IMG/VR virus record: IMGVR_UViG_3300005544_000020 | Location: 160,001 to 224,000 of that record | Direction: 5' to 3' (one strand) | Length of the DNA: 64,000 nt | DNA from: a virus | Lineage: Duplodnaviria > Caudoviricetes | Shown: in pieces, positions 31,332 to 43,383 of the stretch | How positions within the stretch are numbered: the stretch's first letter is position 1 | How the letters are laid out: each line of letters opens with the position of its first letter | Program-made: the position numbers and the translations under genes | Notes under the pieces: generated by a model | The model's database searches: none | Seen by the model: only the letters and a program-made list of their open reading frames with translations | Told to the model about the DNA's origin: nothing

Positions 31332-31637
31332 CTATCCTTCGATCACATAGAGCATCGGAGGGCCTTGGAGTCCCAGCTTCAAACTGGCGGCGAGCTCCTT
31401 GAGAGCCTGCTGCTCCTGGGCATCCGGGATCTGGATGCCGGCGTATTCCTGGCCGTTTCGGATATCAACCGTTCCCAGATGTCGTCCGACGAAGGAGGTC
31501 TTGCCGTTCATCGTCATCGTGAGCGTGATGCCGGCATTCAGGGCATCCTCGCCCTTCTCCATCATCATGCTGTTCCGGATCTCGTCGGAGACCTGCCAGC
31601 CGTGAACCAGGTACAGATTCTTCGGGATCGGCATCAT
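31332..31637 (-). CDS. hypothetical protein
   Basis: Operon packing. Confidence 0.55.
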   Translation of the reverse strand: MMPIPKNLYLVHGWQVSDEIRNSMMMEKGEDALNAGITLTMTMNGKTSFVGRHLGTVDIRNGQEYAGIQIPDAQEQQALKELAASLKLGLQGPPMLYVIEG

Positions 31638-31909
31638 AGGCACACGTATTCCTGATCTGGATCTCCACCTGGCCGGCGACGGCCTGATTTAGGTTCGCGC
31701 ATCCAGCCCTTAGGCTCTTTTTCCTTCGTAGGATCCCACCGATAGAGTTCGCGCACGGCGACCTCAGGATCGTCGTATCACCAGCCTTGGTCGTAGGTCA
31801 TGAGATCGCCCGGCCCCAGGCAGAGCCGCGCCCGGCCGAACGTCAGGGGCACGACCGCGAGAGCCCGACCATCAGGCAGCATCCGTACCGCCAGGAATTC
31901 GTCGCTCAT
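31634..31909 (-). CDS. 91-aa protein with in-frame UGA at codon 44 (possible selenoprotein or readthrough)
   Basis: MSDEF...TYDQGW-UGA-YDDPEVAVRELYRWDPTKEKEPKGWMREPKSGRRRPGGDPDQEYVCL; final TGA overlaps next ATG. Confidence 0.6.
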
Positions 31910-32208
31910 AGAAGCTGTCCCTGGGCTACTTCGAAGTGCTTTGGCCTGCTCCAGCAGCCGCATTCGGAACCATGGCTCTGCAGGCAGGCCTCGAACTCCT
32001 TCTTCTGGACTGAATCCTGGGCCTTCTTCGCCACCTCGAGGTATTCGGCGCTCGGGCTCTTGTCGACTTCCTGCCCGTTCCGGTAATGGCGCCAGATGAG
32101 CCTTCGAAGATCTGCAGGTACCATCGTCCAGTGCTTGTAGCACATGAAAAGGTCCGGCCTTACCGGAATACCGCAGTATCGGGCATGACAGAAGTGTGGA
32201 GTATCCAT
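31906..32208 (-). CDS. zinc-binding hypothetical protein
   Basis: CHARYC...MCYKHW. Confidence 0.6.
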   Translation of the reverse strand: MDTPHFCHARYCGIPVRPDLFMCYKHWTMVPADLRRLIWRHYRNGQEVDKSPSAEYLEVAKKAQDSVQKKEFEACLQSHGSECGCWSRPKHFEVAQGQLL

Positions 32209-42467: not shown

Positions 42468-43383
42468 GCGTTCTTGCGATGTAACCTTGCTGTCCGAGAC
42501 CGGGATATGGCGGGAAGACGACAGGCACCGTCATCGCAGTCGAGGCGTTCGTAAAAGACAGGGTCGTGCTGTTGGTACCGGTAAAGACTCCCGTTCCACT
42601 GTCTCCAAGCCCGTATCCGATGGAGATGTTGTTCATCAAGCGTTGCGCTCGCTCGGCCTGCTCTTCGAACTGCGTCGGCGGAAGTTTATAGCGCTCCTTG
42701 GGCGGGATCCGAACCCAGTCCTTCGCTCTTTCGAGGAGCGCACTCCTCATAAGCCAAGGTCTGAAGGCGGCCGAATCGCGGACGGCATTGCGCCGTGATT
42801 GGGCCATCATTGCTTCCGTGGGAAGCTCTGCCTTCAGTTGGAGGGTCCTCACCCAATTCTCCCGCTCGCGGAACTCGAGCGCGGAATCCTCATTCCAGTC
42901 CGACTCATTGGATTGGGTGTACCAGGGGTCGGGAGCTTTCTTCGGAGGTCCGATCTCGTTGTGATATGGATTGGGGAAAGAGGTCTGTGGGTCAACCCTT
43001 CCTCGGAAGGGATCGTTGCTGTAGTGGAACGCGTTCCCGATGGCCCGGAAATGCATCTCCGAGCCTTCGAGGAGATTCTTCATCGCGACCACATGGTCCG
43101 TCTCCGGCGCGAACGACCGATCCTGCGTGAGGATGCACCAGGACGCCCGAGGCCTTCCGTCCTCGAGCTCCAGAACCGTGGTCCAGCGACGCACCATGTA
43201 CGTCCGCTTCGTCACATTCCCGAGCGCCGGGAACATGCCTGAAAGGCAGTAGAACGAAAACCGCTTCTCGTCGGACATCGACGCAAGAAGTCCCATTGCC
43301 CGACGCTCAGGATCCGGGACCTGACCGGCCTGGAGCGCCGCCCAGTAGTCGAGCTGCTTGTCTTTGCCCCAGAGAATGCTCAT
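42460..43383 (-). CDS. hypothetical protein
   Basis: ATGA overlap start. Confidence 0.6.
   Translation of the reverse strand: MSILWGKDKQLDYWAALQAGQVPDPERRAMGLLASMSDEKRFSFYCLSGMFPALGNVTKRTYMVRRWTTVLELEDGRPRASWCILTQDRSFAPETDHVVAMKNLLEGSEMHFRAIGNAFHYSNDPFRGRVDPQTSFPNPYHNEIGPPKKAPDPWYTQSNESDWNEDSALEFRERENWVRTLQLKAELPTEAMMAQSRRNAVRDSAAFRPWLMRSALLERAKDWVRIPPKERYKLPPTQFEEQAERAQRLMNNISIGYGLGDSGTGVFTGTNSTTLSFTNASTAMTVPVVFPPYPGLGQQGYIARTLA

Follow-up and report, generated by a model that had tools for sequence, protein, structure and literature searches.

An in-frame UGA followed by a covarying hairpin marks a candidate selenoprotein family in environmental phages

Is an in-frame UGA in a small phage gene a stop, a defect or a codon? 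The question is raised by a 64,000-nucleotide (nt) stretch, hereafter the window, of the IMG/VR virus record IMGVR_UViG_3300005544_000020 (positions 160,001 to 224,000), a 236,090-bp sequence of an uncultured phage (GC 57.7%, estimated completeness 90%). Around 27–37 kb the window holds minus-strand genes only, densely packed, and one of them, an open reading frame (ORF) of 91 codons, contains a single in-frame stop, the TGA at 31780-31778, in the context W43-UGA-Y45 (Table 1). Termination at this codon 44 would leave about 135–140 nt without a gene. An earlier note, made from the letters alone, had raised the possibility of a phage selenoprotein. The UGA in a W-x-Y context at codon 44 and the 91-residue read-through frame, whose final TGA overlaps the next ATG, can be read directly from the sequence as that note had them, and its proposal is supported, as far as sequence comparison goes, by a conserved UGA, cysteine homologs and a covarying hairpin. 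We consider it very likely that this UGA is decoded by selenocysteine (Sec) insertion that depends on the SelB of the host. It is also likely, with slightly less assurance, that genuine selenoproteins are encoded by a large and old clade of environmental phage genes (at least 124 distinct sequences), with selenocysteine insertion sequence (SECIS) hairpins that copy those of the hosts themselves (GGUC).

The residue that the family places at codon 44 is most often cysteine. Searched against profiles, the read-through protein gave a weak match to PHROG 24748 (E = 5.6e-5, residues 4-83) and no Pfam family, and an exhaustive profile-free search returned 920 cluster representatives at E <= 1e-3. 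The family motif given in the earlier note (W-C-Y ... EP.GW.R.P..GRRR) is real, with Cys the commonest residue at the column in question. Among 160 aligned relatives, 91 have Cys in column 44, 28 Asp, 12 Glu and only 4 Trp, and the flanking columns are Trp43 in 133 and Tyr45 in 136; other homologs carry the same UGA. Full-length homologs continue past codon 44, and the invariant residues of the family (P66, W69, R79, G82, D83 and E87) all lie downstream of the UGA. The nearest relatives of the window's gene are two that carry the UGA (UGA forms) and one that carries cysteine (a Cys form); the latter, the closest of all at 84% identity, has UGU at codon 44. In the first search, the gene calls of three relatives stopped exactly at the Trp and gave stubs of 55–78 residues. 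The DNA of these three reads TGG TGA TAY, with the frame open through the conserved C-terminal half.

How widespread and how old is the UGA form? An earlier search of viral contigs with a first small alignment gave no match, and a degenerate DNA pattern (TGG TGA TAY, then in-frame C-terminal motifs) was used instead. It matched 52 IMG/VR viral contigs, 3 contigs of metagenome-assembled genomes (MAGs) and at least 120 metagenome contigs. With TGY (Cys) in place of TGA, it matched 47 viral contigs. After removal of duplicates there are at least 124 distinct UGA forms (57 in the viral set and 67 among the metagenome matches listed), and every UGA match is in frame and flanked by an unbroken ORF. 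The protein tree groups the UGA forms in one deep clade (56 of 58 rows), whose terminal branches measure about 0.5 changes per site. The clade includes two reversions to Cys, and one UGA form branches separately elsewhere, which takes at least four changes in all. The UGA-form phage sequences are about 40–50% identical to one another.

These genes bear the marks of translation beyond the UGA. Downstream of it, column entropy in the 57 viral UGA forms is 0.66, 0.48 and 1.59 bits at codon positions 1, 2 and 3, and in nearly all comparisons of close relatives synonymous differences exceed non-synonymous ones on both sides of the UGA. The gene ends at a conserved place, four codons past E87, in 54/57 viral UGA forms and in 66/67 among the metagenome matches listed, and the terminator at that place is itself TGA in 33/57 and 46/67, respectively. 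One TGA is thus read through and another terminates in the same mRNA, which leaves no room for error, decay or a reassigned code.

Two observations concern the edges of this distribution. The metagenome contig WNGI01000009.1 (132.7 kb) carries two separate UGA-form copies (L142:1386-1520 and L218:553-687), and some phages may therefore keep paralogous candidate selenoprotein genes. The UGA form at L045:5329-5463 (-) is placed inside the Cys clade and is without the GU loop described below, having GCU CUU GCG at nt 22-30; it would be either an independent, differently signalled UGA or a genuine nonsense mutation.

Positions in the RNA signal are numbered from the U of the in-frame UGA (nt 1 = 31780). 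The window's hairpin, GAG-G-UCGC [CGUGC] GCGA-A-CUC, is as the earlier note had drawn it: a spacing of 20 nt separates the UGA from the loop, which opens at the 21st nt and has G as its second base. The hairpin is the minimum free energy (MFE) structure of nt 10-42, at -9.1 kcal/mol, and reaches -11.4 kcal/mol when forced within about 37 nt. The fold of the window's 63-nt stretch taken alone is unexceptional (z -0.05), and support for the hairpin comes from comparison with relatives rather than from folding energy.

That comparison shows a signal shared at the nucleotide level. In the UGA forms, nt 22-30 are alike down to the synonymous positions and fall into three classes: GCG GUC GCN (the main class), GCC GUG CGC (that of the window) and GCA GUU GCN. 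GU stands at nt 25-26 in 53/57 viral UGA forms and in 63/67 among the metagenome matches listed, versus 4/46 Cys forms, and nearly all UGA forms can fold a hairpin of 5–8 bp that places this GU in a GGUC tetraloop or a CGUGC pentaloop. At equal GC, mean MFE is -14.8 kcal/mol for UGA forms versus -12.3 kcal/mol for Cys forms (p = 0.002). The base after the UGA is always U.

The stems themselves vary widely in sequence (CUGAC/GUCAG in L056, GCGGC/GCCGC in L015), and the amino acids change so that stem pairing stays. Across all UGA forms, 76.6% of cells are paired versus 62.8% after shuffling (0/500), and the covariation score is 0.421 versus 0.203 (0/500), with every slid register lower. The window's own pentaloop class (n = 15) gave 75% versus 60.6% paired and a score of 0.375 versus 0.182, again with 0/500 for both. 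Cys forms scored on the same structure were no better than their shuffles, and the Cys revertant L004 has only the upper 4 bp of the stem left.

We also searched 1.59 Mb of fetched phage DNA for a signature consisting of a codon, 17–24 nt, and a stem of at least 5 bp with a GGUC loop, with an open frame on both sides. It occurred 90 times after TGA, 88 of them in this family, and after other codons 0 (TAA), 2 (TAG), 6 (TGG) and 6 (TGC) times. The association of UGA with the GGUC hairpin is far above chance. In the flanks of related loci, no second gene carried the GGUC signature above chance, and an Rfam scan of 31500-32000 at E <= 10 gave two chance matches only. A crude scan of the 236-kb genome for further TGA-plus-hairpin sites returned 36 candidates, mostly ATGA junctions or antisense, and excludes nothing, having missed the real site with its stem mismatch. 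One candidate second site, at window position 42796 (+), was rejected; it lies opposite a 324-aa minus-strand ORF, with no PHROG match.

Does the hairpin resemble the signals that bacteria use? The published bacterial SECIS (bSECIS) consensus asks for a loop of 3–9 nt, a stem of 4–16 bp, G in the first two loop positions, a spacing of 16–37 nt and an MFE <= -7.5 kcal/mol (PMC13188914). The window passes with its CGUGC loop, 4 bp, 20-nt spacing and -11.4 kcal/mol, and 55/57 UGA forms do so too, 44 of them with exactly 20-nt spacing. The likeness to the bacterial SECIS pattern claimed at the outset thus stands: the published model accommodates the hairpin, the hairpin covaries, and the Cys forms are without it.

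The minimal E. coli SECIS element spans nt 15-31. Read directly from the sequence, the fdhF loop of E. coli K-12 is GGUC at nt 22-25. SelB contacts G23 and U24 of this element, which also has a bulged U17 (PMC8659212). The phage genes are like fdhF (Sec140) in having an in-frame UGA, an adjacent hairpin, a small apical loop with G-U, and Cys homologs. Their main class shares the GGUC loop, placed at nt 24-27 rather than nt 22-25 and hence 2 nt farther out; the window's pentaloop CGUGC differs from it, and a strict fdhF-type SECIS (GGUC loop plus bulged U17) is not what the window carries. Unlike fdhF, the gene lies on a phage without Sec machinery, and its product, which is no known oxidoreductase, mostly lacks a partner Cys. 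A bacterial gene with the same type of loop as the main class was seen in the Thermomicrobiales MAG that holds UGA form L063, where an FdnG-like gene (L137:1612-1680) has an in-frame TGA in the context ARI-U-HSSTV and, after it, a 7-bp stem that closes a GGUCU loop.

Taken together, these features would fit the following course of events. A ribosome at the UGA would cover the first 12–15 nt downstream, and by analogy with the E. coli model the hairpin, which begins at nt 16, would stand just outside the covered stretch. Host SelB with Sec-tRNA(Sec) would bind the apical loop at G25-U26, selenocysteine would be delivered, and translation would continue to the real TGA terminator and yield the 91-residue product; we infer both the binding of SelB and the identity of the inserted residue. 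A product that includes the C-terminal half is possible only if the UGA is decoded. The phage would supply the UGA and the SECIS only, and the host the tRNA-Sec, SelA, SelB and SelD. The yield of full-length protein would then depend on whether the host is Sec-competent and on how much selenium is available, and where decoding fails a 43-residue fragment would result.

The absence of Sec machinery from the phage, noticed for the window at the start, was borne out by searches that found no SelB wing domain and no UGA tRNA. ARAGORN called three tRNAs in the 236-kb genome, none for UGA, and no UGA-reading tRNA was present in the fetched parts of 55 UGA-form loci. The three calls, at 13483-13556 (-), 9649-9727 (-) and 9821-9898 (-), comprise one CUA anticodon and two 'tRNA-Ala(cgc)'; the CUA tRNA is of the amber suppressor type (ARAGORN label tRNA-Pyl), reads UAG rather than UGA and has no bearing on the finding.

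Sec machinery was also searched for in the three MAGs that hold UGA forms. A Thermomicrobiales bin and a Gemmatimonadetes bin (G002 and G003) each have SelA (E ~1e-130), SelB wing 3 and a tRNA-Sec above the Rfam cut-off. One phage-like contig of about 83 kb was binned twice in a single study, into a proteobacterial and a Gemmatimonadetes bin, with identical UGA-form proteins (L062:7364-7492 and L064:6024-6152), and its host assignment by binning is therefore ambiguous. The matches from cultured phages in the GenBank phage collection are Cys forms: gp271c of Caulobacter phage BL47 (W-C-Y), the members in Bertelyvirus relatives of that phage, and the member in Sinorhizobium phage Phosso (Y-C-F). 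No SelA or SelB was found in the control genome of Caulobacter vibrioides, a host of Cys-form phages. The Cys forms of cultured jumbo phages share W/Y-C-Y/F, EP.GW.RHP, GRRR and GD..KE with the UGA forms, but take their Cys from UGY, for which a SECIS-type hairpin is not required. Annotated members of this kind are found at L259:1372-1677 and L260:412-696.

Several observations count against Sec insertion. The window has one of the weaker hairpins (4 bp, a mismatch, 3 bp), and the MFE fold of its 63-nt stretch is a competing one. The bSECIS model is permissive in GC-rich DNA, as it also accepts 31/46 Cys forms and, of the codon-shuffled sequences, 44%, at scattered positions; the case therefore rests on fixed position, fixed loop and covariation. 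The phage stems are mostly perfect, without a conserved bulged U such as U17 of fdhF. Residue 44 is variable in the family (Asp or Glu in 40/160, Trp in 4/160), and another residue could be tolerated there. The proteobacterial bin G001 (3.2 Mb) holds a UGA form and has no SelA, SelB or tRNA-Sec; the Sec machinery that was seen belongs to MAGs that hold relatives of the gene. As for the competing hairpin, it lies at 31748-31777 (-), nt 4-33 (UACG-A-CGAUC [CUGA] GGUCG-C-CGUG), and could not form with a ribosome on the UGA. A similar fold is the MFE structure in L002 and is absent from most relatives.

Some of these points would also suit read-through of another kind, in which a near-cognate tRNA (e.g., tRNA-Trp, giving W-W-Y) decodes the UGA, the hairpin acts as a general pause or stimulator, and the site sets the ratio of short to full-length product. 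The Trp found at column 44 in a few relatives, the tolerance of that column and the bin without Sec machinery lend it something. However, the aligned residue is mainly Cys and not Trp, and the loop dinucleotide, the spacing and the GGUC loop are those of a SelB-type SECIS and more specific than a pause site needs. In E. coli, UGA followed by U is not known to be a leaky context, and U is what always follows here; nor do the fetched phage regions contain an opal-suppressor tRNA. We regard read-through without Sec as improbable.

Still less probable, with a small chance, is that the UGA is a true stop and that the locus makes two products, a 43-residue peptide and a C-terminal peptide restarted downstream. 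The window does offer a 40-codon ORF that starts at a GTG (31756), and gene callers took only the first half in three relatives. Yet most UGA forms have GUC at that position, so that no restart codon is conserved, the Cys-form relatives are single polypeptides, the predicted structure is one compact domain that includes the C-terminal segment, and the hairpin would be left unexplained. A single in-frame stop usually signals a pseudogene or else a mistake in assembly or sequencing, but for this phage either reading is refuted by the comparative data and has next to no probability, given the recurrence of the same TGA in at least 124 distinct sequences from many samples and across a deep clade, the excess of synonymous changes on both sides and the intact invariant residues downstream. 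Equally remote is a reassigned code of the table 4 type with TGA as sense: recoded phages exist and the genome has a suppressor-type tRNA, though one with a CUA anticodon (UAG), but TGA ends 7 of the 11 genes of the local gene string, including a Pfam-supported 603-aa HerA-like ATPase, as well as this family at its conserved C-terminus, and no tRNA with a UCA anticodon was found in this genome or in the fetched parts of the UGA-form loci, which leaves no sign of genome-wide reassignment.

If Sec is inserted, what might it do? AlphaFold2, run with 38 relatives, predicts one compact domain (pLDDT, predicted local distance difference test, 94.6) with four strands, a helix at residues 48-57 and a C-terminal segment; the SECIS therefore overlaps the codons of the helix. 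In the model, residue 44 lies inside the last strand (strand 4), by its end, beside the near-invariant W43 and Y45. The best Foldseek match in the PDB was AcrF1 (E = 0.69), and a wide VIA-align search reached a best Z of 5.4, under the stated noise level of 7–8 (WGR domains, about Z 4). The AlphaFold DB clusters contained uncharacterised relatives only, and an ESM Atlas search with the natural Cys homolog P0003 found unnamed viral clusters only. The predicted fold may be new, as no solved structure matches it above noise, an absence that alone does not exclude a fold.

Two redox roles were considered and rejected. A Cys30-Sec44 pair is suggested by the Cys30 of the window and its close relatives, but in many Cys44 forms position 30 is Ile or Val, and the majority of UGA forms (76/119 cores) lack any further Cys. 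A thioredoxin-like or CxxU redox selenoprotein does not agree with this lack of a resolving Cys in 76/119, nor with a model made of a four-strand sheet and one helix. Our guess, held with low confidence, is that residue 44 may act on its own, as the nucleophile or a ligand residue of a small binding protein, rather than as half of a redox pair.

Among viruses, a 2021 review of viral recoding lists selenocysteine only in two poxvirus genes captured from the host (PMC8310308), a 2026 review of prokaryotic selenoproteomes does not mention phages (PMC13188914), and our full-text searches of the literature found no description of a phage selenoprotein. The glutathione peroxidase selenoproteins of molluscum contagiosum and fowlpox viruses (PMC8310308) are likewise virus-encoded and would share with the phage family a complete reliance on host Sec machinery. 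They are, however, captured host genes of known function with a eukaryotic SECIS, whereas the phage family is phage-specific with a bacterial-type SECIS inside the ORF. Phages recoded to code 4 or 15, and phage suppressor tRNAs, also decode a stop as sense inside a phage gene; there the change is genome-wide or tRNA-driven, whereas here it would affect one codon through a local RNA signal, with TGA still the commonest terminator.

If Sec decoding is correct, bacteriophages would gain their first described selenoprotein family, and some phage proteins would be conditional on the selenocysteine machinery of the host and on selenium supply. Such dependence would serve as an internal marker of host range and host physiology, and perhaps as a gate on them, and a UGA/SECIS gene could be used to infer a Sec-decoding host. 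Gene callers would be halving a whole phage protein family, as in the three stub relatives, and counts of selenoproteomes in environmental metagenomes would miss the viral share. The family would also be a clean natural example of Sec placed in a small protein that is not enzyme-like and has no partner Cys, which bears on the choice of Sec over Cys. The Cys-form relatives in cultured Caulobacter and Sinorhizobium jumbo phages would provide laboratory systems for studying the function of the family.

Table 1. Features of the candidate selenoprotein gene and its RNA signal (positions in the window)
Feature	Position	Strand	Remarks
Recoded gene, whole	31634..31909	-	91 codons + final TGA; small phage protein, PHROG 24748
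ATG start	31907..31909	-	overlaps TGA stop 31906-31908 of upstream 100-aa gene (ATGA coupling)
Codons 2-43, N-terminal half	31781..31906	-	strands 1-4, last residue W43
In-frame UGA, codon 44, proposed selenocysteine codon	31778..31780	-	Cys aligned there in most relatives
SECIS-like hairpin	31745..31765	-	nt 16-36; upper stem 4 bp UCGC/GCGA, G.A mismatch, lower stem 3 bp GAG/CUC
Apical loop CGUGC	31753..31757	-	G25-U26 = 31756-31755; dinucleotide kept in 116/124 UGA forms (57 viral, 67 among the metagenome matches listed)
Codons 45-91, C-terminal half	31637..31777	-	bears invariant P66, W69, R79, G82, D83, E87
Terminator TGA	31634..31636	-	overlaps ATG 31635-31637 of next gene (ATGA)

The neighbours of the gene in this phage are a Cys/His-rich protein (phrog_18063), the HerA-like ATPase, DUF5131 and DUF1508 proteins, a DNA-repair-like protein and an AAA ATPase. 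Across the family, no neighbour was consistent among 103 loci, so that gene order offers no hint of function. The translationally adjacent gene upstream, coupled through its stop codon (31906-32208 (-), 100 aa), matches phrog_18063 with E = 1.4e-25; the N-terminus of its product, C-H...C...C..H, looks like a small zinc-binding module. In L001 and L004, both close relatives, a phrog_18063 gene likewise stands upstream of the family member.
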